A stretch of DNA of 52,412 nucleotides from a virus (taxonomy: Duplodnaviria > Caudoviricetes), in the IMG/VR virus record IMGVR_UViG_3300025838_000051, positions 1-52,412 of that record; one strand, written 5' to 3'. Position numbers and translations under genes: made by a program. The notes beneath the pieces are model-generated. The model was given only the letters and a program-made list of their open reading frames with translations. It was not told the DNA's origin and did not search any database. How positions within the stretch are numbered: position 1 is the stretch's first letter; every line of letters starts with the position of its first letter. Shown here piece after piece: positions 13,277 through 35,503 of the stretch.

Positions 13277-13456
13277 TTACCCTGACCACGACCACGACCC
13301 CGACCTCGACACCGACCTCGCCCTCGACCACCTCGACCACTGCTGTCTGGAGCATTTGTACCTTATCGCTTCTGCCGCCGCGATGCCCCCCTCATCCTCC
13401 AGCCAATCGGCATAAATCAAATAATCGTCTGTTGACGCGAAATCAAAATCGCCCAT
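13277..13456 (-). CDS. 59-aa TIGR02996-motif protein with Ser/Arg/Trp tail (absent from ORF track)
   Basis: Translated by hand: MGDFDFASTDDYLIYADWLEDEGGIAAAEAIRYKCSRQQWSRWSRARSVSRSGSWSWSG*; TAATG coupling to upstream gene. Confidence 0.7.
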   Translation of the reverse strand: MGDFDFASTDDYLIYADWLEDEGGIAAAEAIRYKCSRQQWSRWSRARSVSRSGSWSWSG

Positions 13457-13710
13457 TAGATTGCCTCGCTAAAAAGTTTATGCGGCCACGGGATCCAGTT
13501 GACCCATTGAACCGTCACGGCCCCAACTGGTTCAATCTCCATACCCGCAGCCTTGCCATTTTTGACAAAATCTGATAGTTTTCCGCTATCCGCAACCCAG
13601 CTTGCGTCAGCCAAAATTACGGTAAACGGATTCGGTATTTTGACTACACGACCAACCCAATCTTTTGTTACAGTTTGCACGAAAACAACATCGCCTATTT
13701 TAAGATCCAC
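13456..13710 (-). CDS. small beta-barrel phage protein (DUF6948-like)
   Basis: IGDVVFVQTVT..WVGRV...LADASWVADSG pattern. Confidence 0.6.
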   Translation of the reverse strand: MDLKIGDVVFVQTVTKDWVGRVVKIPNPFTVILADASWVADSGKLSDFVKNGKAAGMEIEPVGAVTVQWVNWIPWPHKLFSEAI

Positions 13711-13721
13711 CCCTCACCCCC

Positions 13722-13925
13722 TCACTTTATTATGAGCCATTTTTGAACCATATCCCACGGATAATACCGCTCCCACGGGATAGACATCGCCTCGTTATAG
13801 CGATAGCGTACATGACAATACAAACCACCCGTATCAACCAAAACCTCCTGCGCACTCTCCGGAGGCAACCCGCCCCCGCACGCTGGACCCGGTTGCCAAG
13901 GCAAGGTCTGGTGGGTGTCGGACAT
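13722..13925 (-). CDS. hypothetical protein, paralogue of 13937..14248
   Basis: Start MSDTHQ behind AAGGAG; shares LPWQPGPA and W..V..WLI.K. Confidence 0.6.
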   Translation of the reverse strand: MSDTHQTLPWQPGPACGGGLPPESAQEVLVDTGGLYCHVRYRYNEAMSIPWERYYPWDMVQKWLIIK

Positions 13926-13936
13926 ATTTGTCTCCT

Positions 13937-14248
13937 TTACTTCAAGATTAACCATCGATCTACTTCGCTCCAGTTCCTTTGAGATACCATTCTGTGATTT
14001 TCCGAGTATTGCCATATATCACTATTTTGAAACCTGTAAGCCATATTCCATTCACCAGCGGTATTATGCAGTATGGCATTAGTATAAGATTGTCCCGGCA
14101 AGGCTTCCGGTATAGTTCCCCCGGCTGCTGGCCCATCCTCCCAGATCGGTATTTTGTCGAGCAGGTTTTGTAATGGAGTGGCCCCAGTCCCGCCCGCTGG
14201 CCCCGGCTGCCATGGCAGGGCTGGTTCTACTATATCAGCAATATTCAT
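13937..14248 (-). CDS. hypothetical protein
   Basis: 103 aa, two WxxGPA-GG units, GGGAG RBS. Confidence 0.6.
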   Translation of the reverse strand: MNIADIVEPALPWQPGPAGGTGATPLQNLLDKIPIWEDGPAAGGTIPEALPGQSYTNAILHNTAGEWNMAYRFQNSDIWQYSENHRMVSQRNWSEVDRWLILK

Positions 14249-14597
14249 TCTCCCTCACTTGATTACGAGGTCGATCTTCATAACACAAGTATGGTTCGGG
14301 CCCATGTCCATTAATAATAGTAAAATGTCCTTCGTATTTCTGACCAAGCATTCCCCTTCCGCCGTCTTTTACTTTTTCCGGTTGCAAATGCGATGTAGGT
14401 ACAAACTCCATATAACCGTTTACGAAAACTGCAACGTGATAAAGGTAATAAGTTTTGTTTCTTTTTCCGCGAAAATGATAGCTCCGCAACAAGTCTCCGG
14501 GATATATCGGATAGCCATTGGAATCATGTATTTGTCCCGGTTTCGTCCACCAACAAGGTATTGGCCGATCAGGGCTCGAAGGATTTTCAACGGTCAT
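14235..14597 (-). CDS. YopX-like protein
   Basis: HDSNGYPIYPGDLL resembles the YopX DxNGxxIYEGDI motif; GGAGG RBS. Confidence 0.5.
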   Translation of the reverse strand: MTVENPSSPDRPIPCWWTKPGQIHDSNGYPIYPGDLLRSYHFRGKRNKTYYLYHVAVFVNGYMEFVPTSHLQPEKVKDGGRGMLGQKYEGHFTIINGHGPEPYLCYEDRPRNQVRENEYC

Positions 14598-14794
14598 CTA
14601 AACACCTCCAATGATACGCCTAGCGATTTTGTAATCTGACGCATAGTTTGAAAAGCCGGTCGGGTAGTCCTGCCGTCCTCAATGCGGGTGACCACACTGG
14701 GGAGCAATCCTGACTCCCGGGCCAGCCGGTATATGGTCCATCCCTTTTGCTCGCGAAGGACGCGAAGTCTCTGACCTAATGACAGCTGTTTCAT
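14594..14794 (-). CDS. XRE-family HTH regulator
   Basis: LGQRLRVLREQKGWTIYRLARESGL...IEDG...P...T...I..SLGVSL; GAGGA RBS. Confidence 0.85.
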   Translation of the reverse strand: MKQLSLGQRLRVLREQKGWTIYRLARESGLLPSVVTRIEDGRTTRPAFQTMRQITKSLGVSLEVFR

Positions 14795-14819
14795 GGGTTC
14801 CTCGGATTGCATCTGAGTT

Positions 14820-14848
14820 AATATATCCATTTGTACACTATGAGTCAA
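14820..14848 (-). promoter_or_regulatory. sigma70-type promoter of the leftward accessory operon
   Basis: Minus strand TTGACT-17 nt-TATATT, just upstream of the XRE gene. Confidence 0.65.
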
Positions 14849-14934
14849 CAAAAGATTAAAATAATTTCGTATAAAACTCGAGTTATTTGCCGAGCCTGAA
14901 GCCCGCTATTTTTGCAGGCCAAAATAGGCTATAA

Positions 14935-15143
14935 TGGGTAGAAGGTGGGTAGTACCAAATCACCTAAATTGTTTTGTAATCAAGATTTACGGTTCTCCGA
15001 GCGGGTCTTCATAAGCCGCGTGTCACAGGTTCAAATCCTGTCACCGCTACTGTCGCAACCCCTATCAGCAAAAGAGATTTTATCTCTTACCCCAGCCCGC
15101 TGGGAGTGCCAATAACCCTAAAATAGGTGGGTAAAAATACCCA
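14935..15143. repeat. TGGGTA repeats flanking the attP core (candidate integrase arm sites)
   Basis: TGGGTA at 14935, 14946 and 15128, inverted TACCCA at 15138; GGTGGGTA on both sides of the core. Confidence 0.5.
15008..15050 (+). other. attP core: 3' half of a tRNA with CAT anticodon (Met or Ile2)
   Basis: TTCATAA loop, GCCGC, GTGTC, ACAGG-TTCAAAT-CCTGT T-arm, CACCGCT-A; no D-arm or 5' acceptor strand; 113 bp upstream of integrase. Confidence 0.85.
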
Positions 15144-15163
15144 ACTATTCCGGAGGCACCCCT

Positions 15164-16246
15164 ATGGCACGTTCGCCTATCTGGCCGCCCAAACGTCGCG
15201 TCCACAAAACCGGCCAGGAATATATCTGTTTCAAAAAACACACTTATTATCTCGGTCAGCCAGGTTCGGCTGAAGCCGACGAAAAATATCGTGCCTTGCT
15301 GTTACAGTTGGCTCCTGCTGCTTCCATCGGACTCCCCGTTCCCCCGGACTTGGCTGATCTTACGGTTGAGGATGTTGTCTCCCGGTGGATCGTGGAAGAA
15401 ATTCCTCGCTATCCTCGCAGTTCCCGCGAGCCTGCACAGTTTCGATATAGCCTAGTCCCATTGCTGGAGTTGTTCGGTACGACCCTTGCAAAAAATTTCC
15501 GAGCTGGACAGCTGGAGCAGGTTCAGATGGCCATGGCCAAAACCTTGATTCGACCTGTCGTCAATCGGCGGATTGTCCGGATCCGGACAGTCTGGAGGTG
15601 GGTCGAGCAAAAAGGATTGGTCCCACCTGGATCGTGGGAAAACCTGCGCACACTCAGGGGGCTATCTGCATGGGATGCCCGCGTACGTCAGCCAGCCAAA
15701 AGGCTTGCCATCACTGAAGCCGATATTACCCGCATTGCAAATGCAGCTCCTGCGGTTGTAAGGGCAATGATCTGGACCCAGTATCTGACCGGTATGCGAT
15801 CTGGAGAGGTCCGCACAGCCCGGGTAGGGGAAATTGACCGATTAGGCGATATCTGGATCTATCGACCTGCCAATCACAAAATGGCCTATCGCGGCCAATC
15901 CCGGGCCATTCCAATCGGTCCCCGAGCCCAAGAGTTGCTAAAGCCTTATCTGCTACGACCTTCGGAGGAGTACGTGTTTCATCCCGTCCTTGAAGCCCGT
16001 CGTGGAAATGTCTGTTACAGCGATACCAGCTATGCGCAGGCTTGCAGGCGAGCAGCCCTGTCCTGCGACATCATAGGATTCCATCCCTATTTGCTACGAC
16101 ACGCGGCCAAACAGCATTTGACGGAGCTTTATGGACTGGATACCGCCCGGGCGGTATTGGGACAGCTAAGCCTGGGCACAACCAATCTGTATGGATCAGC
16201 TGTCGATCTGCGTGTCGCCATCAATGCAATACAAAAGTCCGGATAG
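15164..16246 (+). CDS. int: tyrosine recombinase / phage integrase
   Basis: TGMRSGE (R), HK (K), HPYLLRH, LGQ...TTNLY (Y); N-terminal YLGxxGSxEAxxKY arm-binding region. Confidence 0.95.
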   Translation: MARSPIWPPKRRVHKTGQEYICFKKHTYYLGQPGSAEADEKYRALLLQLAPAASIGLPVPPDLADLTVEDVVSRWIVEEIPRYPRSSREPAQFRYSLVPLLELFGTTLAKNFRAGQLEQVQMAMAKTLIRPVVNRRIVRIRTVWRWVEQKGLVPPGSWENLRTLRGLSAWDARVRQPAKRLAITEADITRIANAAPAVVRAMIWTQYLTGMRSGEVRTARVGEIDRLGDIWIYRPANHKMAYRGQSRAIPIGPRAQELLKPYLLRPSEEYVFHPVLEARRGNVCYSDTSYAQACRRAALSCDIIGFHPYLLRHAAKQHLTELYGLDTARAVLGQLSLGTTNLYGSAVDLRVAINAIQKSG

Positions 16247-16462
16247 GCGGTTTACGTCGCTTGTTGTTTTTACAAAGACGGTGGACCTTGACAAAAGGTT
16301 CACCTTTTTTTATTGAGTTGTTTTGTCCCATCTGACCTGCACATTTTTAACAGTTTCAGTGTACAATCATACAGTACCATAAAAATCGTGAACTATCCGA
16401 TTTTCCCCAAAACGCTACAATTGTTGCAGCTGCATTTTTCCTCTTTTAGCTGGACCGGATCC

Positions 16463-16870
16463 ATGAATCAATTTTCATTGGATGAACTGATTGCCGTCAC
16501 GAGAGCGTTCGTTGCCAATCACTACGATGATTCTCCAGATGTCATTAAAATCACAATGAAATCAGGCAAAGAGTTGAGTCTACCAATTCCATCCCGATCT
16601 CCCGTTCCGGTCAATAAACCACAAGAGGACTTAGAGGAAGAATGGGAACCATTTATTCCGACTCCATTTCAACGTGGAATTCTTAAAGCCCTTGACGGAA
16701 AAGCTCTTCGTACGGACGCTCTTGCTGCTGTCGTAGGGGATCGGTCAAGGTTGTTTCGTCGAGGCGGTTTAAATGAGCTTAGAGATCGTGGTATGGTCGC
16801 CAATCATCCTGCTATTGGATTTTACAGGCCAGACGCACCTCCCCCTGAATTGGAAACCACGCTATCTTGA
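16463..16870 (+). CDS. hypothetical protein with possible C-terminal winged helix
   Basis: TPFQRGILKAL...LRTDALAAVVG...LNELRDRGMV...GFY. Confidence 0.55.
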   Translation: MNQFSLDELIAVTRAFVANHYDDSPDVIKITMKSGKELSLPIPSRSPVPVNKPQEDLEEEWEPFIPTPFQRGILKALDGKALRTDALAAVVGDRSRLFRRGGLNELRDRGMVANHPAIGFYRPDAPPPELETTLS

Positions 16871-16962
16871 TGGTTCAATACCAAGTATACACCTAGTTTG
16901 CGACTGAAACGGACCAACATTTTACGCCAAAATGAACTCTCCAATATTCCCGGAGAGTTCAA

Positions 16963-17229
16963 GTGAATCAATATTACACCCCGACAGAATTGGCCCAGCT
17001 GCTCCGACTAAACACCGAGACCATTTATCGGTGGCTACGGCAACAGCGGATAGCGGCCATCAACCTGGGCAGCAGCAATCGCCCGCAATGGAGGATTCCG
17101 GAGCAGGCTGTCCGTCAGCTGACAGGGACAAACAAACAAACCGACCCACCACGAAAGCGGCGGGCCGGTAATAAATTCAATGAAGCTGCGTGGAATTTGC
17201 TGGCAAAAAGGAGTCGTGGGAAATGCTAG
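16963..17229 (+). CDS. xis: excisionase-like HTH_17 DNA-binding protein
   Basis: YYTPTELAQLLRLNTETIYRWLRQQRIAAINLG...WRIP; GGAG RBS. Confidence 0.8.
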   Translation: MNQYYTPTELAQLLRLNTETIYRWLRQQRIAAINLGSSNRPQWRIPEQAVRQLTGTNKQTDPPRKRRAGNKFNEAAWNLLAKRSRGKC

Positions 17230-17235
17230 AAAATT

Positions 17236-17457
17236 TTAATCAACAGGCTCGGTGGATTCATCCATCTCCAGCTGCTTGGTCACAGCCAGCCGAACATACG
17301 AAGACATTGACAGCCCATGCCGACGGCTTTGGTGAAACAGCCGTCGGTATAGCTCAGGATCAACACGGAGATCAACCCGATCGCGGACGTCGGATGTTTC
17401 GTCCGGCTTTTTTTTCTTGGCCACGGGATCGTCCAGCATCAAGACCATATTTATCAT
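17236..17457 (-). CDS. ribbon-helix-helix (CopG/Arc-like) regulator
   Basis: RVDLRVDPELYRRL...SRRHGLSMSSYVRLAV; divergent from the early operon. Confidence 0.75.
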   Translation of the reverse strand: MINMVLMLDDPVAKKKKPDETSDVRDRVDLRVDPELYRRLFHQSRRHGLSMSSYVRLAVTKQLEMDESTEPVD

Positions 17458-17559
17458 CTCCCCATGTTACCAATTACAGCTCACGTACCCTACAGGTAAT
17501 TGTAACGCAGTTTACCAGCCTCCGTACGTATTTTCAACGGATTTTTCCCGATTTTGTTC

Positions 17560-17588
17560 TTGACTGATCCGGGAAACGTACGTACGAT
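17560..17588 (+). promoter_or_regulatory. sigma70-type early promoter overlapped by CGTACG palindromes
   Basis: TTGACT-17 nt-TACGAT; CGTACGTA at 17523 and 17577. Confidence 0.7.
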
Positions 17589-17631
17589 TAACAGAGTAAA
17601 CAACTTTACTCCTATTTGAAAGGAACAGGAC

Positions 17632-17955
17632 ATGAGCGTGGTGCATGTTTCTGAGCCGAAAAAAAAGATGGGACCGGAAGAGGCTAAAACCCTCGTTTCC
17701 CAGCATGATTTTGGCTATCGCTGGCTGTCAATTGACCCCAATCGCAGCGAATACCCGATGGTCCCGGCGATTTGGATTACCGAGTTCGGTCCCCGTATGC
17801 GAATGGTCTTCGACGGATCCGATTGGTTTCTTGATGTCCCAAAAGAGGACCGCCACGAATACCGGCATTTTGGCTTTTATCCTAGTTTGCAGAAATGCCT
17901 GGAGGCCGCCGAAATCCATTACCTGATGGAAACCGTCCCCCGATTTTCAATGTGA
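17632..17955 (+). CDS. hypothetical protein
   Basis: 107 aa, AGGA RBS, first gene after the promoter. Confidence 0.6.
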   Translation: MSVVHVSEPKKKMGPEEAKTLVSQHDFGYRWLSIDPNRSEYPMVPAIWITEFGPRMRMVFDGSDWFLDVPKEDRHEYRHFGFYPSLQKCLEAAEIHYLMETVPRFSM

Positions 17956-17976
17956 TCACCTTGTTGGTGGTTTTTT

Positions 17977-18011
17977 CCCGGGGGAATGCTGGCTTGCTCC
18001 CCCGGGTTTTT
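17977..18011 (+). terminator. hairpin with T-tract
   Basis: CCCGGGGGA...TCCCCCGGG followed by TTTTT. Confidence 0.5.
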
Positions 18012-18037
18012 GATGAGTGTTTTTTTAGGAGACTAAC

Positions 18038-18574
18038 ATGTCCGCCGCATTAAGTTTGTACGGTTTAACCCACAATCATGCAGGTATGGAATTGATGATT
18101 GAGGATGCAATCGATCAGGAGCGTCCTCAGGAAGAGATTGACCGCCTACTACAGGAGCAGCTGGTGCGAGAGGGCCAGATTGAGGCCAAAGTCGATAATT
18201 ATATCCGGTATATCCGCCATCTCGAAGCCGTAGCTGCTGCGAGGCAGGAGGAATCCGACAGGTTGCACCAACTGGTCCAGTCCAGCATGTCCAAGGTTGC
18301 TTCGATGAAGCAGGCCCTCAAAGAGGGCCTGAAAATCTTGGGCAAGCCCAAGTTATCTACCCCCCATCACGAAATCTCTGTCCGCAAAAACGGTGGCAAA
18401 GAGCCGCTGATTATCGAGCCCTCCGCAAATCCGGAAAATCTGGATCAGGGGTGGGTAAAAATTGTTGTAACGAAACGGATTGATACGGACCTTATTCGTC
18501 AGGCACTGGAAAACGGAGAGGTCCTTGATTTTGCCCATTTGGGCCAGCGTGGGGATCACCTGAGTATACGGTAG
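18038..18574 (+). CDS. Siphovirus Gp157 family protein
   Basis: KVDNYIRYIRHLEA...ESDRL...ISVRKN...IDTDLIRQALENGEVLDFAHL...HLSIR. Confidence 0.85.
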   Translation: MSAALSLYGLTHNHAGMELMIEDAIDQERPQEEIDRLLQEQLVREGQIEAKVDNYIRYIRHLEAVAAARQEESDRLHQLVQSSMSKVASMKQALKEGLKILGKPKLSTPHHEISVRKNGGKEPLIIEPSANPENLDQGWVKIVVTKRIDTDLIRQALENGEVLDFAHLGQRGDHLSIR

Positions 18575-18670
18575 AAGATTTGAAGCCTGCAAGCGGTTGT
18601 CGTTTGCGATGCCCTGGGGGCGTTTGGTATACGCGCCCCCGGGGGTTTTGACTACTACAGGAGTTTTACC

Positions 18671-18955
18671 GTGATTCCAGACAATCAAAAATGCCAGACC
18701 TGCCGATATGCGGTTGATCATCCCGGTGGAAAAGGCAGCAATACTGAGTGCCACAAAAACCCACCAGTTGTAAAAGTCGGCACCCGATGGGGCCAGTGGC
18801 CCGAGGTGGAAAAATACGATTGGTGTGGTGAGTGGCAACCACAAGCATCCAACACAATTACAGGAGCCAATAATGCCAGCTTTGAAGCACTTGGACCAAT
18901 TGATCGGCAAGGAGTTTCGATTGCCCAAATCGCTATATCCGGTGAGCCATTGTGA
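18671..18955 (+). CDS. small Cys-rich phage protein
   Basis: CQTCRY...CHKNPP...WPEV...DWCGEW; AGGAG RBS. Confidence 0.65.
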   Translation: MIPDNQKCQTCRYAVDHPGGKGSNTECHKNPPVVKVGTRWGQWPEVEKYDWCGEWQPQASNTITGANNASFEALGPIDRQGVSIAQIAISGEPL

Positions 18956-21103: not shown

Positions 21104-22132
21104 ATGAAAGCCGAGCAGGTTAGTTATTTGAAAATTGACGAAATTATCGCGGATCCAGATACTCAGGTCAGGGTATCACACAGCGAGGAAAGGGAAATTG
21201 AGTATGCCGAGCATTACGCCAATGGAGTGCAGTTTCCCCCGCTGGTTGTGTTTTACAATTCATCTAAAGATCAGGACAACCGCTATTGGTTGTCTGATGG
21301 CCACCATCGTTTTGCGGCAGCCAAGCGAGCCGGATTGCAGGTTATTAATTGCAAGGTAAATTTTGCGTCTGGCGATACAAGAGAAGCGGCAATTGAGGCC
21401 GCATGTGGTGCCAACGCCACCCATGGTATGCCTCGGACCCGCGCGGATAAACGTCGTACGGTTGAGATTTATTGGAGAACTTTTTGCAAGGGACGAGAAG
21501 TGCGCAAATCTTCAAGAATTATTGCCGAAATCTGCAAAGTGACGCAGCCATTTGTTGATTCCGTCCTAAATGATTTAGAAACGACTGATAATAATTATCA
21601 CTCAAAAATTGAGGGCAAGGACGGTAGAACCTATACTGTCAAACCCAAATCTAAACCCAAGCCAGTTCCCATCAAAATATCTGAATCAATTGATGAACTT
21701 GTTGATCAGGAGGAGCCAGAAATTCCCCAAGTGGTTGTTCCTCCTGAGTGCGATATGGAAGGCCATGCCCTTACTTCGGTGGTCAAACCGGCTTTTGAAG
21801 TCGTGCCCAAATTTGCAGAACTTATGCGATTGCTGGAAACAGCCGGGAATCTGGTGCAGGCAATTGCAGTGCATCCGGGCGGAGAATTTTTTCGCTTGAC
21901 CTGCCAGCTGCATGGAAAAAAAGGCAATGCCAAACATCGGTCAGCCGAGCTGGATGAACTGCTATGCAATGTACGCATGAGCCAACCTCATTCGATTTGT
22001 GCCCGCTGTCACGGTGTCGGGGAAACCGACTCGGTAAAGTGTATCTCCTGCTGCGGTCGTGGCTGGTGGGACAGGGTAACCTGGACAGGGGCCAGTTCGG
22101 AACTCAAATCGGGATTGTCCAAGTGCATATAG
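21104..22132 (+). CDS. ParB/Srx-domain protein with HTH and C-terminal zinc finger
   Basis: FPPLVVF...WLSDGHHRFAAA; ANATHGMPRTRADKRR; HTH SSRIIAEICKVTQPFV; CARCHG...CISCCGRGW. Confidence 0.85.
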   Translation: MKAEQVSYLKIDEIIADPDTQVRVSHSEEREIEYAEHYANGVQFPPLVVFYNSSKDQDNRYWLSDGHHRFAAAKRAGLQVINCKVNFASGDTREAAIEAACGANATHGMPRTRADKRRTVEIYWRTFCKGREVRKSSRIIAEICKVTQPFVDSVLNDLETTDNNYHSKIEGKDGRTYTVKPKSKPKPVPIKISESIDELVDQEEPEIPQVVVPPECDMEGHALTSVVKPAFEVVPKFAELMRLLETAGNLVQAIAVHPGGEFFRLTCQLHGKKGNAKHRSAELDELLCNVRMSQPHSICARCHGVGETDSVKCISCCGRGWWDRVTWTGASSELKSGLSKCI

Positions 22133-28598: not shown

Positions 28599-29489
28599 AT
28601 GACAACAGTAGGAGACCAACAATTTGAAGTGGAAATGCGTCGCAATCCTCGGGATCAATATGCACGATTGTTGTACGCAGACTGGTTGGAAAGCGAGGGG
28701 CGAAATGAGGACGCCATGTTTATCCGGTGCCTGCATAAGCTCGCCACTGAGAAAGTAAAACGGGTGTCCGACAGGCGTGCGCTCGAGAATCAACTGAGGC
28801 AACTGGCATTGTCTCGACAATTCCGCCCCGGTCCATTTTGGACCAATTGTATTGGGATGAAATTTGCTTGGGTCCAAGATGATCTGCATTATCCTGCGGG
28901 CGGATTCTGGCTGGGAGTATATCCTGTAACTCAAGCCCAGTATTTGAGGGTGAAGAAAAATAACCCCAGTTTTTTTAACAAAGAAGGCGTTGATTTAAAT
29001 GGATATCCTGTTGATGGTGTTCGATGGGGCGATTGCTATGAATTTATTCACTGGCTGGAATTATTGGACAAATATAACAGATATGAATTGCCCACCCCAT
29101 CAGAATGGGTAACAGCCTGTTCCGGAGGAATTCATTGCAGCGACTATTGGTTCAGGGATTATCCGTTCAAATATGCAAATGTTTATACTGGGATACCCCA
29201 TAATAATACAACTCCGGTGGACAAATACCCGGCCAACCCGTTTGGCATCAAAGACATGATTGGAAATGTGTGGGAATGGTGCAAGACAGAGCCTAATGAA
29301 ACAATGTGGCGACCGATTATGGGGCCCAGTTGGGCTTACCCTGCAATGGCTCCAAAAGCACAATTAAACAGGTCGCTAGGTCAAGGTAATTCCGCCAATA
29401 CGCATGTTCTTTCCGCCGACATTGGTTTCCGGATCAAACTGGTAAACATTATCCCTACAGTCGTTGACAAGGATCAAAAGCCTTGCTAA
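28599..29489 (+). CDS. TIGR02996 domain + FGE-sulfatase (SUMF1, C-type-lectin fold) protein
   Basis: NPRDQYARLLYADWLESEG; NCIGMKFAWV, YPVTQAQY, NNPSFF, YELPTPSEW, NPFGIKDMIGNVWEWC, IGFR. Confidence 0.88.
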   Translation: MTTVGDQQFEVEMRRNPRDQYARLLYADWLESEGRNEDAMFIRCLHKLATEKVKRVSDRRALENQLRQLALSRQFRPGPFWTNCIGMKFAWVQDDLHYPAGGFWLGVYPVTQAQYLRVKKNNPSFFNKEGVDLNGYPVDGVRWGDCYEFIHWLELLDKYNRYELPTPSEWVTACSGGIHCSDYWFRDYPFKYANVYTGIPHNNTTPVDKYPANPFGIKDMIGNVWEWCKTEPNETMWRPIMGPSWAYPAMAPKAQLNRSLGQGNSANTHVLSADIGFRIKLVNIIPTVVDKDQKPC

Positions 29490-29524
29490 AACAATAGGAC
29501 CAACTTCAAAGCTGGTCTCCAGCT

Positions 29525-29553: not shown

Positions 29554-29568
29554 TGTGCGTTTGTGCAA

Positions 29569-30342
29569 TCACTTTTTGGATTCGGACAATCGCTTCCAAA
29601 CAAAATCCTGGGCATTATTTCCAAACCGGGCGACTCCGGTAATAGTGGTACCATCAGCCGACACGATACCGACACGTACCTGCGGTTCATAACCGGCAGG
29701 CTTGAAATAGGTCAGTTTGATCTGCAAGACTCCCTGATCGGATAAGGCCCCTGTAAAGGTCCAGTTGACAACGCCATCCTTGCCCTGATACTTGCAGCTT
29801 CCCGTGACATGCCCATCGTCTTTTTGTTTGATATTCAGGGTGATGTTGTTTTCCGTTCCATCGGACCATTCTCCTGTAATGTCAATATTGACCGGCTTGG
29901 CTGCAATCGGGTTTCCTGCTTTGCCAGCAGCTTCGAGAACCAGTATGGTCCGGCCATTGTGCCTGGACGTTCCTGAGACCACAAACTCTTTCAATCCCAA
30001 CACGCTGGGCCATTGGCCGCCGCTGATGAACTTGTCGTCGGTCAGGCCAGCCGTCTTGCATTTCACCAAAGCCGTAGCCGTGGGCCCGTTGGCAATCCGG
30101 GCTTCCTTGAGCTGCACCAGCAAGGTGCTATCGTCAACCACGGACAAAATCTGCAGATCGAGGAAATTGGTTAGCCCCTTGGCACCAACTTTTAGATTGT
30201 CGACAATCAGCTGTCCAGGCGGAGCTTTCATCGCCTCCACGCGGGCTTTCATGTCCGCGATTTCTTTCGCGTTCTGGAACCGTTGTTGAGATGTCACTGA
30301 ACTGGCCAGCAACAGTAGCAGGAACAAGGCAATCGTTCTCAT
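29569..30342 (-). CDS. secreted/periplasmic protein (moron-like)
   Basis: Signal peptide MRTIALFLLLLLASSVTS behind GGAG; C-terminal beta-barrel-like DITGEW...VTGS...FTG. Confidence 0.7.
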   Translation of the reverse strand: MRTIALFLLLLLASSVTSQQRFQNAKEIADMKARVEAMKAPPGQLIVDNLKVGAKGLTNFLDLQILSVVDDSTLLVQLKEARIANGPTATALVKCKTAGLTDDKFISGGQWPSVLGLKEFVVSGTSRHNGRTILVLEAAGKAGNPIAAKPVNIDITGEWSDGTENNITLNIKQKDDGHVTGSCKYQGKDGVVNWTFTGALSDQGVLQIKLTYFKPAGYEPQVRVGIVSADGTTITGVARFGNNAQDFVWKRLSESKK

Positions 30343-30460
30343 AGGATGTCTCCATGCGGGGTAAGGGAATGTAACATGCTTTCCATTTTGTCGAATAATC
30401 ACGGTAACGCTATATTTTTTTTAAAGGTGGGGTAAAATAAGGATAAATGAAAGGGAAATT

Positions 30461-31060
30461 ATGGCCACAAAGAAAACCACATCTGAACCAGCTCCCAAAA
30501 ACCGCAACCTGGGAATCCGTCGCGTCCGCGTAGCGGATATCGAAGACGCCCCTTGGAATTTTCGTACCCATCCTGAAGGGCAGGCAAAGGCCCTGGGCGA
30601 CGTTGTTGATGAACTGGGATGGTATGGCTATCCTGATGTTTACGAAACCGCAGACGGGCTCCTGCGATTGTGTGACGGGCATCTGCGCAAAAAGATCTTG
30701 CTGGACAAGTATGGACTTGAAGCTGAAATTGAAGTGAATATCACCAACTTTGATGAGCATGAAGCGAAAAAGGCGACACTGACCAAGGATCCGCTGGCGG
30801 CCATGGCAGAGGTGGATGCGGAGCAGTTAGACGCCTTGCTTCGCGAGGTGCAAACAGAAAGCGAAGCGATCGGCGGAATGCTGGAGGAAATGGCCAAGTC
30901 TGCGGGCATTGTGCCGGAAGAGGGGCCAGCTGCGGATCAATCCGGGCTGTTGAAAGAAAAATATCAGATCCTCATTGACTGCGAGAGTGAAACACAACAA
31001 GCGGAGCTACTCGAAAGGTTTCAGGGGGAGGGGATCGAATGCCGGTCATTGATGTCGTAA
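30461..31060 (+). CDS. ParB/Srx N-terminal-domain protein
   Basis: PWNFRTHP...ELGW...LCDGHLR; C-terminal YQILIDCESETQQAELLERF..EGIECR. Confidence 0.8.
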   Translation: MATKKTTSEPAPKNRNLGIRRVRVADIEDAPWNFRTHPEGQAKALGDVVDELGWYGYPDVYETADGLLRLCDGHLRKKILLDKYGLEAEIEVNITNFDEHEAKKATLTKDPLAAMAEVDAEQLDALLREVQTESEAIGGMLEEMAKSAGIVPEEGPAADQSGLLKEKYQILIDCESETQQAELLERFQGEGIECRSLMS

Positions 31061-32166
31061 ACAAGGTCGAGGTAACCAAAACGCCGCGATTGATGCAATT
31101 GAACGGGCTGTTTGACGTTGCCATTCCCGCTGTCAGCGAATGCAGTTGGAAAATTGATTTGCCGATTGAAAAGGATGACTGGAACATCGGATTGATAGTT
31201 GGGCCCAGTGGATCAGGCAAGAGCAGTGTTGCCAGGACATTGTTTGCTGATCAATACGCATTAAGCCACGATTGGCCGGCCAACAAATCAATCGTGGACG
31301 GTTTCCCTGCAAGCATGTCGATCAAGGAAATTACGCAACTCCTTTCGTCTGTTGGGTTTTCCAGTCCACCCAGTTGGGTGAGGCCTTATTCTGCCTTGTC
31401 AACAGGGGAGCAGTTTCGCGTGACAGTGGCCAGAGCGTTAGCGGAATGCAGCGATTTGGCGGTTTTGGATGAGTTCACGAGTGTCGTAGACAGGACGGTT
31501 GCCCGGATTGGTTCGGCAGCCGTAGCCAAAGCAGTCCGGATACGCAAGCAAAAATTCATCGCAGTGACCTGCCATTACGATGTGGCTGACTGGCTTCAGC
31601 CGGATTGGATTCTGGAGATGCCAGACGCGGTGTTTACCCGGAGGTTACTTCAACGACGCCCGGCAATTCAACTGGAAATCCGGCGAGTCCATAAAGACAC
31701 TTGGCACAAATTCAAGCGTTATCACTATCTGAGTTCATCAACATCCAGTGCCGCTACCTGTTTTGCTGGCTACGTCGATGGCAATCCTGTTGCTTTTGCG
31801 TCCTGCATGCACGTCGTAAATTCCATGGGCGGAAATTGCGAATTGCGAACGGTCTGCCTGCCGGATTGGCAAGGGATCGGCATTGGCAATGCCATCAGTG
31901 AATTTGTGGCAGGCGTCATGCGTGCGGTTCATAAAAACTATTACAGTGTCACTGGCAATCCAGCCATGATTCGCCATCGTGCCCGCAGTCCCCTTTGGGT
32001 GATGACACGAAAACCAAGCCGAAACACTTCAAAACATAACAGTTGCGAACAGATTAAATTAAACAAATCTGTTGCTTCCGATCGTTTGACCTGTTCCTTC
32101 AAATACGTTGGGCCTCCCCGGATTGATGACGCCAAGCAGCTCGGTTTGCTTTGCGGCAAATCATAG
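31039..32166 (+). CDS. ABC ATPase fused to a GNAT (Mom-like) acyltransferase
   Basis: GPSGSGKS, LSTGEQFR, LDEFTS, TCH; C-terminal FKRYHYL...RTVCLPDWQGIGIG acetyl-CoA motif. Confidence 0.88.
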   Translation: MPVIDVVNKVEVTKTPRLMQLNGLFDVAIPAVSECSWKIDLPIEKDDWNIGLIVGPSGSGKSSVARTLFADQYALSHDWPANKSIVDGFPASMSIKEITQLLSSVGFSSPPSWVRPYSALSTGEQFRVTVARALAECSDLAVLDEFTSVVDRTVARIGSAAVAKAVRIRKQKFIAVTCHYDVADWLQPDWILEMPDAVFTRRLLQRRPAIQLEIRRVHKDTWHKFKRYHYLSSSTSSAATCFAGYVDGNPVAFASCMHVVNSMGGNCELRTVCLPDWQGIGIGNAISEFVAGVMRAVHKNYYSVTGNPAMIRHRARSPLWVMTRKPSRNTSKHNSCEQIKLNKSVASDRLTCSFKYVGPPRIDDAKQLGLLCGKS

Positions 32167-32544
32167 TCGCGATTGATGCTGTTGCAAAAACTCGGAAGGC
32201 GGCATCCAGAGCAATTGCTGTCCACGACAGTAGTACGGTTTGACCGGCCTGACGTTAGCCAAGATCCAGCAACATGGCCCAATCTTGAATGGATTAGCCG
32301 GAACGCTTTCAGCTGGCAGGCAATCAATCAAATCGCAAAGGCCAATAATGGCCCCAAAGACCAGCTGCTCTTTGGGAGGGAACTCGCAAGGCTTATCGTG
32401 CCCGTTGTTGAAGTAAAACAATTTCTGCCCGGCATGAATGGCCAGCGGGCCACGGTAGGGCGTCTTCCATGTGCGGTTCTCAATTCGCTTTTGCCCATGA
32501 ACGATTGCCCAAGCCCACGGTTGCAGGATGGTTAATGCCTTCAC
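32161..32544 (-). CDS. ASCH domain protein
   Basis: KALTILQPWAWAIVHGQKRIENRTW...YRGPLAIHAG...RGQQLLW; GTG start behind GGAGG. Confidence 0.9.
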   Translation of the reverse strand: MKALTILQPWAWAIVHGQKRIENRTWKTPYRGPLAIHAGQKLFYFNNGHDKPCEFPPKEQLVFGAIIGLCDLIDCLPAESVPANPFKIGPCCWILANVRPVKPYYCRGQQLLWMPPSEFLQQHQSRL

Positions 32545-32717
32545 TTTTTCACCTCCTGCTGTAATTGCTCCAATAGTTTGCGCGTGGCGGCAGAAGGTGT
32601 ACGCCTGCCGTATTCCCACTGCTGGTAGGTCCGCAGATGGACGCCAAGCCTTTCGGCCATTTTCAGCTGCGTGAGGTGTAGTTTTTGACGAAGGGCTAAA
32701 ATTTCCGGAGGTTTCAT
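32541..32717 (-). CDS. XRE HTH protein
   Basis: ILALRQKLHLTQLKMAERLGVHLRTYQQWEYGRRTPS. Confidence 0.88.
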   Translation of the reverse strand: MKPPEILALRQKLHLTQLKMAERLGVHLRTYQQWEYGRRTPSAATRKLLEQLQQEVKK

Positions 32718-32841
32718 TTGACACGCTTTCATTTTGGTGATATTAAACTGATGGCACTCGTTAGTCTCCGATGCCAACAGCCCCGCCTGGAGTGCAATCC
32801 GGGCGGGGCATTTTGCTTTTACCTACTGCTGCCAGTCGGCA

Positions 32842-33507
32842 TCAACGATTGCAGCGGGCGCATCCCATCCCGCCCCATTCCACCCGTCCTGGAACATCAA
32901 AGACCTCCCCGCATTCCATGCACTCAGTTAAAGGGCATGGGGGCGGATTAAAGGCTTCTTTTGCCTGTTCCCACCTGTCAAAAACATCGAACTGATAGCC
33001 TTCCGAATAGCCGACAGAAAAAACAAATACCGTTTTGTCCTCAGTATCTAGTCGCAATCGAATTTTTTCTATTTTTCTGGGAGAAAAACCACCGTTGTAA
33101 TTGCCGATCTGAATTTCTTTTTTTTCCAAAACATCACGGATCCGACCTAACCAGGCTGGTATGGTTCCTCCGTCGCTATCCATGACCGTGCTGACAAAAT
33201 TAGATGCTTTAAAGCTTACGGGAGAATCCTCTATTTTTGTTGGAATATCGTGCAACATATCGTATTCTTCACAAATTTCACGAACGCTTAAAAACCTGAT
33301 TTTTCCATCTGACCAAATTGAGCGTCCGTGTTCATTGTGTATTAATTCGGCATCAATAACAAATTCTTCAATTTTAGACAATTCGTCTGATAAGGTTTTA
33401 CCGATTTTATATTCTTTCAAAGTCTTATTCCAGCTGTCAGTCAACAACCTTGCAACTTCTTCGCGGGTTTTAAAAATCCTATTGTAAATTTTGTAATAGG
33501 TAGCCAT
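32842..33507 (-). CDS. hypothetical protein with C-terminal zinc ribbon, low GC
   Basis: CMECG...CARC; AAGGA RBS. Confidence 0.65.
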   Translation of the reverse strand: MATYYKIYNRIFKTREEVARLLTDSWNKTLKEYKIGKTLSDELSKIEEFVIDAELIHNEHGRSIWSDGKIRFLSVREICEEYDMLHDIPTKIEDSPVSFKASNFVSTVMDSDGGTIPAWLGRIRDVLEKKEIQIGNYNGGFSPRKIEKIRLRLDTEDKTVFVFSVGYSEGYQFDVFDRWEQAKEAFNPPPCPLTECMECGEVFDVPGRVEWGGMGCARCNR

Positions 33508-33606
33508 CTGATTCCTTTTCGTAAAAATCGAATTTGTAAAAGTTTTTGATGAGTTCAGCAGTGTTATTAATAAGTGTTAGTTTTGCCCTTGTTTGCTAAC
33601 ACCTGA

Positions 33607-34041
33607 CTAACTCCACGGCAGCAAGCAAGGGATCCGGGCCACTTGCCTCCAGCGGCATCTGCTCCAAAAAACCTGATGCGGTTTGCCGTTCATGAATTCC
33701 CAGGCGATAATTTTCCACTCTTGCCCAGGTGGTGGTTGCGCTGGCAAAAAATCAAACGATGTCGGCGACAGATGCAGGGCGAACGGATTTTGAGACCCAT
33801 CATCAAAAAGCAGCTCAACCGCTTCAGGTAACCCCATATCGGGCCATGGCCCGCGAGACAGGATAACCTCTTTGCCTGTCCGCATTTCCTTGATGACTGC
33901 CCGTTGCGAATCCGGTATCAAAATCCGGATTGCACCGGCATTGATCGAGCAGAAGACCTTGCCTGCCCGGTTGTATTCGCTGTCCCAGTAATTGGACGCA
34001 GCGATTAACGGGCCATCGTTGCTGATTTCAATTAAAGCCAT
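33607..34041 (-). CDS. hypothetical phage protein
   Basis: 144 aa, GGAG RBS. Confidence 0.65.
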   Translation of the reverse strand: MALIEISNDGPLIAASNYWDSEYNRAGKVFCSINAGAIRILIPDSQRAVIKEMRTGKEVILSRGPWPDMGLPEAVELLFDDGSQNPFALHLSPTSFDFLPAQPPPGQEWKIIAWEFMNGKPHQVFWSRCRWRQVARIPCLLPWS

Positions 34042-34070
34042 TGTTTAGTCTCCGAGTTTTACAAGGTGTT

Positions 34071-34940
34071 TTACAATTCAAAATCAACCCGATTCCACTG
34101 CTTACACAGCTTTTCCAGAAATTCCTTTTGTTCGGGTGCCAAGGTTCCATGATTCCATTTGACTGAGCCTGGGCGGTTGTAGCGGTCACCAGTGTGGTAG
34201 TAGGTGAGCCTCTCACGTTTCCCGTTGCCGATATAAATCCTTTTTTCGGCGTCCCTGCTCCAGACCTTTAGGCTATCGCCGGACTGAATGACCCCCTTGA
34301 AAAGTTCGCGAGCCTGAGCCGCGATTTTATCTTTTTCCTCCCACAGCTTGCGGGTTTTTTCTGCTTCTTGGGCTTTGGTCTCGGCTTCAGCCTCTGCCTT
34401 TCGTTTGCGTTCAAATTCGTCTTGTTGGAGCCGATTAAGTTTTTTGAGCAGCATCCGGGTATTTTCGTAGCGATTATCAATCCAGAATTTAGCGTCGGCT
34501 TGTTGCAGGACCCAAGCTGCTGCTTTGGTGTGCTGGACAGGCAGGCCATTTCCTTCCAGCCAGTCAGCCAGCAATGACCAAGCGAATAAATCAAAAGGGT
34601 GATCGGAAAGGTTTTGAATCAGCTCCGATCCAACAGGATCGTTGGATTCAAAATCGGTAGTCCATTTCGGCAGATCCTGCAACAACTCCTGCCGGACTGA
34701 TTCAGCCCAGCTGCATTGTTTTTCGGATCCGATCAGAACAGGCAGATTGTTTTCCGCTGCCCATCGTTGGGCCGCAGAATTTGCGGACGCCTGGCGTTCG
34801 CTTCTGATTTGCTCCAGGCAGGCCGGGCAATGGCCGCTGGACTCCAGCCACTCAACTCGCTTTTGTCGCTCGGACGTTTTGCCGAAAAGCCGTTCCGTGC
34901 CGGCATGGCCGCAGGAATAGTTGATCGTGTATTGAGCCAT
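34071..34940 (-). CDS. zinc-binding phage protein with internal TIGR02996-like motif
   Basis: YSCGH...CPAC; LIGSEKQCSWAESVR; HPFDLFAWSLLADWLEGNG; AKFWIDNR. Confidence 0.7.
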   Translation of the reverse strand: MAQYTINYSCGHAGTERLFGKTSERQKRVEWLESSGHCPACLEQIRSERQASANSAAQRWAAENNLPVLIGSEKQCSWAESVRQELLQDLPKWTTDFESNDPVGSELIQNLSDHPFDLFAWSLLADWLEGNGLPVQHTKAAAWVLQQADAKFWIDNRYENTRMLLKKLNRLQQDEFERKRKAEAEAETKAQEAEKTRKLWEEKDKIAAQARELFKGVIQSGDSLKVWSRDAEKRIYIGNGKRERLTYYHTGDRYNRPGSVKWNHGTLAPEQKEFLEKLCKQWNRVDFEL

Positions 34941-35038
34941 GATACGCAGTCTCCGATTAAGAGGGCCGGGTGCAACCGGCATGGTTAAAGAAGCGGACAA
35001 GAAGCCCGGCCACATGACCGGGGGCGAACTTGGTTGAA

Positions 35039-35503
35039 TTAGTCTTGAACAATTTTAATCATTAGATCTTGCGCAATATCCCAGCGTACCAGGAATTGAG
35101 AAGTCCCTTCATCCATGGGATGGTTCGATTTGTAATAGCGACGGTGAAAACCAAAATTCAGGCGTTCGCTAAGACCTTTTAACTCAGAGCGATAATGCCC
35201 TTTGGCCCGATCGATTAATCTCTGATGCTCGAAATCGTATTCTGGTTGTCCCGATTTTTTTACTCCGATAGGGTCCTTGCTGCCGACGACCCGTAAATAC
35301 TCCAGGTACAACTTATAAGCATCTTTGGCTTTTTGAACAATTTCATGAGTAATTTCAATTTCGGCAACTTTCAATAATAGCCGGCTTAATTTTCGCTCAT
35401 GTTCAGCCATATCGCTATTGCCTTGTTCTTCCAACCAATCCGCATATATAGACCGGACCAAAGGATTGGAGGGTTCTTTTTTTACTAAATCGCCAATATT
35501 CAT
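35039..35503 (-). CDS. TIGR02996-motif protein
   Basis: EPSNPLVRSIYADWLEEQGNSDMAEHER; AGGAG RBS. Confidence 0.75.
   Translation of the reverse strand: MNIGDLVKKEPSNPLVRSIYADWLEEQGNSDMAEHERKLSRLLLKVAEIEITHEIVQKAKDAYKLYLEYLRVVGSKDPIGVKKSGQPEYDFEHQRLIDRAKGHYRSELKGLSERLNFGFHRRYYKSNHPMDEGTSQFLVRWDIAQDLMIKIVQD

Follow-up and report, generated by a model that had tools for sequence, protein, structure and literature searches.

The window analysed here, the whole 52,412-nucleotide stretch of IMGVR_UViG_3300025838_000051, comes from a freshwater, siphovirus-like temperate phage genome that is 73% complete according to the IMG/VR record; the integrase and excisionase-like genes that it carries likewise indicate a temperate phage. 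Four ORFs encode the motif (Y/L)ADWLExxG, namely P0001 (13277..13456, minus strand), P0002 (28599..29489, plus strand), P0003 (34071..34940, minus strand) and P0004 (35039..35503, minus strand). These were the four ORFs listed in an earlier note on this DNA, and all were confirmed at these coordinates. In a six-frame scan of the window, ADWLE occurred at these four places only, against a mean motif count of 0.01 (maximum 1) in 300 mononucleotide shuffles.

In two profile searches with TIGR02996 (curated cut-off, 29.05 bits), P0002 exceeded the cut-off (35.4 and 38.7 bits; domain at nt 28620-28745), P0001 (27.6 and 27.1 bits) and P0004 (24.7 and 26.4 bits) fell just under it, and P0003 was weak, unmatched in one search and scoring 12.7 bits (E = 0.007) in the other. 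The window copies thus score 13-39 bits, compared with 60-94 bits for typical host or viral copies, and may have lost the canonical interaction or never have had it. ADWLE and the Gly three residues later are invariant in all four; in a 110-row alignment, ADWLE is invariant and the Gly is at least 90% conserved. The closest relative of each window copy is a cellular copy (37-46% identity), with the other window copies at 20-36%, a comparison of identities that we count in favour of probably independent origins. The remaining parts of the four proteins had no match in the other sampled TIGR02996 proteins. An AlphaFold2 model predicts a TPR-like module of three helices (residues 4-14, 20-31 and 35-57), and 47 of 110 TIGR02996 segments gave a weak TPR_15 match; no specific fold match was found for this weakly TPR-like module.

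The four phage proteins and their surroundings

P0001, a 59-aa near-minimal protein with a Ser/Arg/Trp-rich tail, matches only positions 17-44 of the 45 in the profile and therefore lacks the first helix. It is the last gene of a minus-strand cluster headed by a cI/Cro-type HTH repressor-like gene (14594..14851, minus strand; HTH_31, E = 8 × 10−12; PHROG transcriptional repressor families), with a promoter-like sequence at 14848-14820. The start of P0001 overlaps, at 13456, the stop of an 84-aa gene directly upstream (13456..13710, minus strand). A homologue of that gene (42% identity, E = 9 × 10−25) is found in two viral loci, L112 and L113, where the genes immediately after it encode small proteins whose tails are rich in Ser and Arg, ahead of a 229-aa TIGR02996 protein. 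The description of the phage copies in general as near-minimal has to be given up: it applies to P0001 only, and since large parts of P0002, P0003 and P0004 are made up of additional domains, 'tagged cargo' fits these three better than 'decoy'.

P0002 (296 aa) joins an N-terminal TIGR02996 domain to a C-terminal FGE-sulfatase/C-type-lectin-fold (FGS) domain at about aa 102-233 (PF03781, 74.9 bits; cut-off, 23.3). The same fusion occurs in two more proteins named as TIGR02996 family members (P0006 and P0007). The order of its domains agrees with the syntax of FGS effectors in the main text of PMC7159879, where the other domain is N-terminal of FGS. P0002 shares a PF03781 C-terminus preceded by another domain with the variable proteins of this fold from diversity-generating retroelements that are mentioned there (BPP-1 Mtd, TvpA). 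However, the window has neither a reverse transcriptase nor a template/variable repeat pair, and P0002 closes the replication block and is not one of the genes of the tail region.

P0003 (289 aa) is a member of phrog_16123 (E = 5.8 × 10−23), a family of unassigned function. A longer frame reaches 35015; the homologues and the PHROG match start at the Met at 34940. A Zn-ribbon-like N-terminus (Cys/His block), along with two more blocks of conserved sequence, is common to P0003 and its relatives from Bifidobacterium phage BigBern1, Clostridium phage phiCs5676-1 and Streptomyces phage Gilgamesh. Between the latter two blocks, P0003 alone has a TIGR02996-like segment of ~40 aa (nt 34512-34625), missing from 3/3 aligned homologues. 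The insertion is precise and in-frame, and both flanking blocks are kept; judged by this alignment, P0003 is a widespread phage protein into which a TIGR02996-like module has been inserted.

P0004 (154 aa) has an N-terminal TIGR02996-type module (nt 35393-35482) followed by 113 aa without a relative: a search of 1.84 billion representatives returned only P0004 itself. Together with P0003 it belongs to a minus-strand block between the replication and packaging modules, whose first gene encodes a DUF932 protein (35657..36643, minus strand; PF06067, 1.9 × 10−57). A minus-strand 30-nt element (family D2) is present in two copies of 87% identity, one upstream of P0004 (35525..35554), overlapping a −10-like TAAAAT, and the other (36692..36721) at a distance of 49-78 nt before the start of the DUF932 gene. 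A terminator-like hairpin (35619..35642, minus strand; 9 pairs, 8 of them G-C) separates the DUF932 gene from P0004. The repeated promoter that the earlier note placed before P0004 is thus real as a repeat; a TTGCAG-16-TAAAAT site can be read at the upstream copy, the consensus scan did not flag it, and we call the element promoter-like.

TIGR02996 in cellular and viral genomes

TIGR02996 was detected in 56 of 81 genomes of the order Gemmatales, with up to at least 75 copies each, compared with 6 of 201 genomes in a phylum-wide sample and 0 of 14 control genomes, in line with the heavy expansion in Gemmata-like genomes that had been asserted. The phage host is most likely a planctomycete from a TIGR02996-rich lineage; the portal of the window had no match in 401 planctomycete genomes. 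The asserted fusions to LRR or FGE-type domains were also recovered: 50 of 92 cellular TIGR02996 ORFs carry LRRs, the PF03781 fusions are those noted above, and one ORF has a SUKH-1 head.

Two scans for the motif, run on 2.9 million viral contigs, yielded 14 and 30 confirmed loci, corresponding to 35 other records. At least two copies were present in 16 of these and at least three in 13, with a maximum of 8 copies in 31.8 kb. Only 2/35 share the portal of the window and 33/35 have an unrelated one, which places the trait in phage lineages that are not related to each other. LRRs were found on 1 of 28 viral TIGR02996 ORFs vs. 50/92 in cells (Fisher's test, p = 4.5 × 10−7). The density in the window is 57-76 copies/Mb, compared with 0.8-14/Mb in five host genomes that were chosen for having TIGR02996. 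Viral copies adjoin a terminase gene in 7 loci and a C5 methylase gene in 4. Direct terminal repeats identify four carriers as free phage genomes, and two others are classed as proviruses. New here is the recurrence of the module in 35 viral records with mostly unrelated portals, almost never with LRRs. Our preferred explanation takes the four ORFs of the window to be genuine accessory genes that a temperate phage carries.

Association with FtsH-MoxR-vWA ternary systems

The earlier note presented TIGR02996 as a proposed adaptor of innate-immune-like systems. No paper naming 'TIGR02996' or 'repeat-companion domain' was found in a search that covered texts outside the supplements of PMC7159879; gene context provides part of what the claim needs. 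For 8 of 80 cellular TIGR02996 loci, the closest neighbouring gene encodes part of the FtsH-MoxR-vWA ternary conflict system (fvmX5 in 4 loci, fvmX7 in 2, and fvmX3-analog, FtsH AAA+M41 and MoxR). A TIGR02996 gene of ~364 aa forms a tight pair with fvmX5, overlapping it in one genome and 128 nt from it in the other; in these two genomes, no FtsH, MoxR or vWA gene was found within about 10 kb of the pair. FtsH AAA+M41 genes adjoin TIGR02996 genes in two loci (L035 and L131). L131 brings together FtsH, ivWA with a helical N-terminus, fvmX7 and two TIGR02996-type genes, and is of the simple type with no Ubl genes seen. In Zavarzinella, itself of the order Gemmatales, a TIGR02996 gene encoding 240 aa is separated by 27 nt from a divergent fvmX7 gene. 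Its product, alone among the cellular ORFs, matches over the full length (E = 8 × 10−13) the C-terminal domain found in the most frequent TIGR02996 family of phages.

At the genome level, fvmX7 was present in 52/56 genomes with TIGR02996 vs. 1/25 without it in the order sample (p = 2 × 10−15), a co-occurrence that alternates genome by genome as if between two clades and is therefore phylogenetically confounded; in the phylum sample, the numbers were 3/6 vs. 9/195 (p = 0.003). None of a further 20 fvmX7 loci from Gemmatales (each of 13.6-20 kb) contained a TIGR02996 ORF, so the physical link is confined to some lineages, and most host paralogues had no conserved neighbour. These observations show that TIGR02996 and fvm components are linked in the genomes of some hosts, and give a partial basis to the premise of an immune adaptor with an ATPase partner. 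The ternary systems are themselves computational predictions, as the main text of PMC7159879 presents them, and PADLOC defence models matched 0/7 TIGR02996 proteins, including the four of the window.

TIGR02996 resembles the bacterial Death-like domains and the effector-associated domains (EADs) known from NTP-dependent conflict systems, as they appear in the main text of Kaur et al. 2020 (PMC7159879). Like them, it is short, helical and without enzymatic activity and sits at a protein terminus; a single genome can encode many lineage-specific paralogues with varied heads, FGS among them; part of the copies are encoded inside or beside a ternary locus; and at the genome level its presence correlates with that of a system component. 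A small helical TPR-like module fits the 'coupling adaptor' logic given there for EADs. However, TIGR02996 is not named in that main text, is fused to a core component (FtsH, fvmX5, fvmX7 or ivWA) in 0/24 loci scanned, most often has an LRR rather than an enzyme as its head, and is missing from most fvmX7 loci examined.

Possible roles of the phage copies

We tentatively favour the view that the phage modules dock on a host partner and so interfere with, or redirect, a host surveillance network. TIGR02996 would be a host-lineage-specific protein-protein docking unit, heading dozens of paralogous, mostly LRR-bearing host proteins and in some genomes encoded within or next to a ternary system. 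The phage copies could dock through the same surface in either of two roles. P0002 with its lectin-fold head, P0003 with its inserted module and P0004 with its orphan head would be tagged cargo, delivered to whichever host component ordinarily accepts TIGR02996 proteins, and the truncated P0001 would be a competitor. We infer the common partner, its place in an immune system and which way the effect runs, and likewise a decoy or hijack mechanism. DED-only vFLIPs and pyrin-only poxvirus proteins are adaptor-domain-only inhibitors of animal innate immunity. By analogy, the phage would encode short copies of a host adaptor domain without the usual sensor or effector part, P0001 coming nearest; however, three of the four window proteins have large other domains, and the host system is a predicted one.

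The modules might instead have no shared partner, being generic TPR-like capping or solubility helix pairs in fragments of abundant host genes gained by illegitimate recombination, neutral or with unrelated functions. The weakly TPR-like fold, the missing conserved neighbour of most host paralogues, the divergent, low-scoring window copies and their mutually unrelated heads would agree with this; however, a copy density in the phage that exceeds the densities in the five compared host genomes 4- to about 95-fold, multi-copy carriage across unrelated portals, the systematic absence of the host's LRR heads from viral copies, the invariance of ADWLE and near-invariance of the Gly, and the precise insertion in P0003 make it unlikely. 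It is also doubtful that the genes are prophage-borne defence cargo, extra sensor or effector heads that join the TIGR02996 network of the lysogen against other phages (superinfection exclusion) and so protect the host rather than attack it. The temperate lifestyle, the place of P0001 at the end of the repressor-headed cluster, typical of lysogeny-expressed genes, the two proviral carriers, the P0002-like homologues and the host-type adaptor-FGS build of P0002, as for ternary systems in the main text of PMC7159879, point that way. Against it stand the four free phage genomes, the terminase and methylase neighbours in other phages, the promoter-like element that P0003, P0004 and DUF932 have of their own and the lack of a PADLOC match for the window proteins.

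Least probable, in our judgement, is a viral F-box-style hijack, in which TIGR02996 would bring variable target-binding heads to a degradative or Ubl-conjugating host machine, turned by the phage versions to phage-chosen targets. TIGR02996 proteins, in which LRR, SUKH-1 or another head comes after a small helical domain at the N-terminus, are similar in build to the F-box proteins of viruses and pathogens such as Ralstonia GALA, by which an invader brings its own receptor subunits, and Gemmata LRRs were assigned to the CC-LRR class, which F-box proteins contain as well (PMC2244805). FtsH is a protease, and ternary systems of the complex type come with all the genes for Ubl conjugation (main text of PMC7159879); FtsH genes next to TIGR02996 genes agree with this. 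However, no F-box family is among the 25 listed of the 28 families matched by the 110 domain segments, a search of 81 Gemmatales genomes for Skp1, run without a positive control, found none, and the simple-type locus L131 shows no Ubl genes.

Under the preferred reading of docking on a host partner, the net effect would be a host surveillance network that is disturbed or redirected. Because TIGR02996 has multiplied in Gemmata-like bacteria, with some copies beside a predicted immune system, a phage that carries the module may plug into that network or jam it.

TIGR02996-type proteins of the phage

All four open reading frames that the earlier note had described are present: P0001 at 13277–13456 on the minus strand (59 aa), P0002 at 28599–29489 on the plus strand (296 aa), and, both on the minus strand, P0003 at 34071–34940 (289 aa, with a longer reading frame to 35015) and P0004 at 35039–35503 (154 aa). 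ADWLE, the core of their common motif, occurs exactly 4 times in the six frames of the window, compared to a mean of 0.01 and a maximum of 1 in 300 shuffles, which rules out a chance motif. The same five residues are invariant across an alignment of 110 TIGR02996 segments (four from the window, 14 viral and 92 cellular), and the glycine three residues past them is at least 90% conserved in this alignment and invariant in the window's four copies. The motif starts 15–26 residues from the N-terminus in P0001, P0002 and P0004, and at about residue 21 in most of the 106 ORFs examined; P0003 is the positional exception, with an internal motif at residue 124 of 289. Because every copy in the window is nearest to cellular copies and not to another window copy, recent intragenomic duplication of the four is excluded.

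In the HMM check that the earlier note had proposed, with TIGR02996 (NCBIfam rpt_mate_G_obs, curated cut-off 29.05 bits), only P0002 scored above the cut-off (35.4 / 38.7 bits, profile positions 4–45 of 45). The other three proteins fell under it: P0001 just so (27.6 / 27.1 bits, E = 2 × 10−6 / 2 × 10−7, positions 17–44), P0004 also with significant E-values (24.7 / 26.4 bits, E = 1.5 × 10−5 / 3.5 × 10−7, positions 10–39), and P0003 with a weak score (nothing at E ≤ 1 in one scan, 12.7 bits at E = 0.007 in the other), having in common with TIGR02996 only the invariant core and the helix pattern.

The four proteins carry the domain in different ways. The C-terminus of P0002 is an FGE-sulfatase/FGS domain (PF03781, 74.9 bits against a cut-off of 23.3, residues 102–233), and its gene stands at the end of the plus-strand replication block, after DUF3310; since two database proteins named 'TIGR02996 family' also carry PF03781, this architecture recurs. 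A reading of P0002 as a DGR variable protein was rejected, as there is no RT among 58 ORFs and no template repeat in the window (the record is 73% complete); no repeat pair in the window involves 29300–29489, the 3′ end of the gene. In P0001, the first helix is missing (the match covers profile positions 17–44 only) and the protein ends in a Ser/Arg/Trp-rich tail. Its gene is the last of a minus-strand cluster headed by a repressor-like gene and, at its start, overlaps the stop of the preceding gene, of 84 aa. Two viral loci contain a homologue of that 84-aa gene (42% identity, E = 9 × 10−25); there, small proteins whose tails are rich in Ser/Arg come directly after the homologue, and a 229-aa TIGR02996 protein comes next. 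This two-gene arrangement argues for P0001 being a real gene. The tailed mini-proteins of viral locus L113 resemble P0001 in position and architecture only, and their relationship to TIGR02996 is not significant (BLASTP E = 0.30; hhalign E = 0.12). In that locus, four tandem small ORFs (2148–3927) with a common N-terminus of ~55 aa (80%-conserved) and long Ser/Arg-rich low-complexity tails, together with a further ORF with a Gly/Asp/Tyr-rich tail (7149–7520), surround the homologue of the 84-aa gene.

P0003 belongs to phrog_16123 (E = 5.8 × 10−23, residues 25–198 of the 314-aa ORF on profile positions 1–151 of 368), with relatives in 9 phage records (tblastn), including Bifidobacterium, Clostridium, Streptomyces and Rhodobacter phages. 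When it is aligned with three of these relatives, the TIGR02996-like segment falls in a gap between conserved blocks and is, on this alignment, an insertion peculiar to this phage. For the C-terminal 113 residues of P0004, no relative was found among 1.84 billion representatives, and a search with the whole protein recovered only itself; the ESM Atlas gave no function for either P0003 or P0004. The 'repeated promoter' that had been placed ahead of P0004 is a real 30-nt repeat, as it recurs upstream of the DUF932 gene at 87% identity; its role as a promoter is putative. A terminator-like hairpin lies between the DUF932 gene and P0004.

The window, an entire IMG/VR virus record of 52,412 bases, is linear, with a CheckV completeness of 73%; scans with Pfam (58 ORFs) and PHROG (69 ORFs) mark it as a temperate phage of siphovirus-like type. 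They identified tail terminator and tape measure genes; UDP-glucose dehydrogenase-like and group-1 glycosyltransferase genes directly downstream of the tail genes (10319–12312); a cI-type HTH gene on the minus strand; an integrase and an excisionase-like HTH; Gam/Gp157-like, RecT, two helicases, VRR-NUC and DUF3310; ASCH-like and DUF932 genes in a minus-strand block; and small terminase, large terminase (two ORFs), portal, MuF-like and capsid-like genes. No tRNA genes were found in the window, megablast against a phage collection gave no match, and the portal was not found in the 401 planctomycete genomes searched. The GC content of 0.51 is a loose fit only to the lower-GC MAGs that bear TIGR02996. 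Contigs from four freshwater DNA runs span the region nearly without differences, which points to a nearly clonal population with no sign of diversification.

Several further features of the window were observed. The short form of the UDP-glucose dehydrogenase (about 270–290 aa) has 1,709 relatives at E ≤ 1 × 10−20, many on 50–80 kb contigs, and the dehydrogenase/glycosyltransferase pair may represent a module for sugar modification that is typical of phages. Two ORFs make up the large terminase, one for the ATPase (39381–40028) and one for the nuclease (40267–41211), and a third, of 79 aa (40021–40260), separates them; the closest complete relative, L001, has the same split (7340–7933 and 8519–9439), and a single ORF of locus L003 (2667–4304) matches both halves. 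A 27-nt palindrome occurs twice (38326–38352 and 44185–44211), inside a 76-nt repeat of 87% identity (38307–38382 and 44166–44241) that terminates in a ribosome-binding-site-like AAGGAG, and the replication block contains a related third copy (21582–21603); the palindrome, ahead of the packaging and head-morphogenesis genes, looks like an operator for a phage regulator. The ORF at 31039–32166 encodes an ABC/AAA-like ATPase (phrog_11143, E = 6 × 10−100; the PADLOC model mad3 also matches, E = 4 × 10−11), which is conserved in viral locus L012, as are the ASCH-like gene and the ParB-like neighbour upstream of the ATPase. The C-terminal ends of two overlapping minus-strand ORFs (13722–14015 and 13937–14248) are alike, which suggests paralogues or a programmed frame change, and the alignment of the former with its homologue in locus L004 breaks into two pieces that lie in different frames. 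An 816-aa protein with repeated Asp/Glu-rich stretches (direct repeat family D1) is encoded at 46454–48904, after the MuF-like gene on one side and next to the decoration-like gene on the other.

Structure and spread of the domain

We know of no established function for the TIGR02996 family. The domain, of 45 profile positions, is small, non-enzymatic and mostly α-helical, with a conserved helical pattern surrounding the invariant ADWLE. Scans with single segments gave weak matches to TPR_15 in 47 and to TPR_19 in 23 of the 110 segments, and an AlphaFold2 model of a phage family member has three helices over the domain (block pLDDT 94–97 for residues 1–50). The alignment profile found nothing significant among PDB sequences (best E values 0.15 and, with a type III chaperone of TPR-like character, 0.56). 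For the commonest phage TIGR02996 family, the AlphaFold2 model (pLDDT 77.7) gave no match at E ≤ 0.001 in a Foldseek search of the PDB, and VIA-align of this model returned generic helical hairpins only (Z ≤ 8.6, residues 34–107). We read the domain as a putative single TPR-like hairpin plus a leading helix. Complex prediction for two TIGR02996 segments, run without controls, gave a score of 0.02.

A motif scan of cellular genomes, one per species, yielded 200 stretches. Confirmation succeeded for 82, and the 80 retained belong almost entirely to Planctomycetota (Gemmataceae, Gemmatales, 'Planctomycetaceae', Pirellulaceae and Zavarzinella). The family model matched 56 of the 81 genomes in the order of Zavarzinella (Gemmatales), with up to at least 75 copies each (the cap set on scoring), 6 of 201 genomes across the phylum and no control genome (0 of 14). 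Among the genomes listed, the most matches, at least 120, are in a MAG that bears the label 'uncultured Alcaligenaceae' (G019; loci L015–L091, on CAYYUU... and CAYRFQ... contigs), and MAGs labelled Chitinophaga and Peribacteria also bear the domain; the non-planctomycete labels of these few TPA MAGs are probably wrong and the genomes planctomycetal. Among the 92 cellular motif ORFs, 50 have LRR heads, one SUKH-1 and one DUF6011, with none recognised in the remaining 40 and no FGE domain in any of the 92. Clustering within 3 kb identified no conserved neighbour of the cellular genes beyond small orthologous groups.

In viruses, 2.9 million contigs were scanned twice for the motif. The scans returned 41 and 101 stretches, with 14 and 30 of them confirmed, and 35 viral records besides the window carry the motif; the family model matches every one of these, as selection by motif would lead one to expect. 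Two or more copies were found in 16 of these records, three or more in 13 and four or more in 8, with 8 copies in 31.8 kb in one of them, figures that are valid only for records with at least one canonical copy. Tandem arrays occur among the viral records. As the loci were found via a strict motif, divergent copies are undercounted, both viral and cellular. The window's portal is common to only 2 of the 35 records, and to one of the 8 that are at least 90% complete, so the trait crosses phage lineages. Alignment of 16 viral proteins defined a family of ~200–260 aa in which TIGR02996 is followed by a Cys-rich linker and a conserved C-terminal α/β domain of ~110 aa; no member of this family was found in the window.

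Association with the predicted FtsH ternary systems

Among the nearest neighbours of the cellular genes (122 ORFs in 80 loci), we found fvmX5 in 4 loci, fvmX7 in 2, and an fvmX3 analog, an FtsH-type AAA+M41 protein and MoxR in one each, so that 8 of the 80 loci have such neighbours in total. These Pfam families stem from the 'FtsH ternary systems', which are predicted to be NTP-dependent anti-invader systems with helical proteins found nowhere else, and for which small 'effector-associated domains' were proposed as coupling adaptors acting via homotypic interaction (Kaur et al. 2020, PMC7159879).

A tight pair of fvmX5 and a TIGR02996 gene of ~364 aa occurs in two genomes, the two genes overlapping in cellular locus L128 (10173–11833) and 128 nt apart in L130 (8561–10362); no FtsH, MoxR or vWA gene lies within about 10 kb of either pair. 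fvmX5, described only from FtsH ternary systems, was observed once per genome in 5 of 5 genomes searched. A third locus, L131, combines FtsH, an fvmX3 analog, fvmX7 and ivWA with a 558-aa TIGR02996 gene and another that is TIGR02996-like. Zavarzinella has a 240-aa TIGR02996 gene in divergent orientation to an fvmX7 gene, at a distance of 27 nt, and the product of this TIGR02996 gene is the only cellular ORF that matches the C-terminal domain of the phage family at full length (E = 8 × 10−13).

At the level of genomes, the co-occurrence of TIGR02996 and fvmX7 gave a strong signal in the order sample (52/4/1/24 in the 2 × 2 table) and counts of 3/3/9/186 in the phylum sample, both uncorrected for phylogeny. 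Several results speak against such a link. The association in the order sample has the look of a division into two clades, no TIGR02996 ORFs were found in 20 further Gemmatales fvmX7 loci, and none of seven TIGR02996 proteins matches a PADLOC model. When all ORFs of 24 fvm loci were scanned with the alignment HMM, TIGR02996 was never fused to FtsH, fvmX5, fvmX7 or ivWA and occurred in separate proteins only.

The adaptor reading and its alternatives

TIGR02996 has adaptor-like behaviour: a small, helical domain in a terminal position, it occurs with many heads and in many paralogues, and some copies lie within an AAA+ ATPase system. The premise of the earlier note, that the domain is an adaptor in immune-like systems of the host, is therefore reasonable from the context found here; the published proposal to which it appealed was not located. 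The EAD-type coupling adaptors (PMC7159879) offer the closest comparison drawn here: TIGR02996 is likewise small, non-enzymatic and mostly α-helical, and its copies sit on varied heads, both beside the system and elsewhere in the genome. It differs in being unfused to the core components in the 24 fvm loci.

That the phage engages the TIGR02996 network of its host at all appears quite possible, if short of probable. The claim of four decoys gives way to a reading that better fits the anatomy of the phage proteins, in which they would be tagged cargo plus one truncated competitor, P0001. Such engagement could block the host network, redirect it or serve the lysogen, and sequence is compatible with each. 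A fuller version, in which TIGR02996 would serve a planctomycete immune network of the FtsH/MoxR type as a coupling adaptor that had so far gone unnamed, with dozens of dispersed LRR 'sensor' paralogues docking onto a single core machine, and in which phages would repeatedly have captured it, fused or inserted it into their own proteins and kept head-less copies to jam or commandeer the network, is doubtful as a whole.

Three alternatives, in descending order of weight, were considered. The proteins could be defence cargo borne by a prophage, which we consider unlikely. In favour, the phage is temperate; against, seven TIGR02996 proteins (the window's four, that of locus L110, that at 3932 in L113 and that of L058) had no match in PADLOC-DB 2.0.0 at E ≤ 0.001. 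It is similarly improbable that the copies have no common partner and reflect passive capture of abundant host gene fragments. The window holds 57–76 copies per Mb compared to 0.8–14 per Mb in five host genomes chosen for having the domain, and LRR heads, present on 50 of the 92 cellular motif ORFs, occur on only one of the 28 viral ones scanned (p = 4.5 × 10−7). Least weight falls on hijacking of a substrate receptor in the manner of F-box proteins, which seems very unlikely. F-box families, as a point of difference, are absent among the 25 listed of the 28 families that match the 110 segments at E ≤ 1, and no F-box profile matches the window's four proteins. The Skp1-type partner PF01466, which a literal SCF reading would call for, was found in none of 81 genomes of the host order, in a search whose controls likewise gave nothing.

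TIGR02996 is a very large family, with up to at least 75 paralogues per genome, in bearers that are difficult to study. For the first time, the present observations place the family in a context open to testing: it occurs in several copies in unrelated phages, its phage copies bear non-host heads, and a predicted FtsH-MoxR-vWA conflict system contains some of its host copies. Should the adaptor reading hold, the phage proteins would be ready-made probes for the hub of a planctomycete immune network, and mimicry of an immune adaptor at the level of a domain would join the known counter-defence strategies of phages; if the copies do jam the network or commandeer it, viral death-fold or F-box mimicry would have its counterpart in bacteria, and phage anti-defence strategies would gain a new class. 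If the adaptor reading is false, phages of Gemmata-like hosts still gain a marker gene class from these data.
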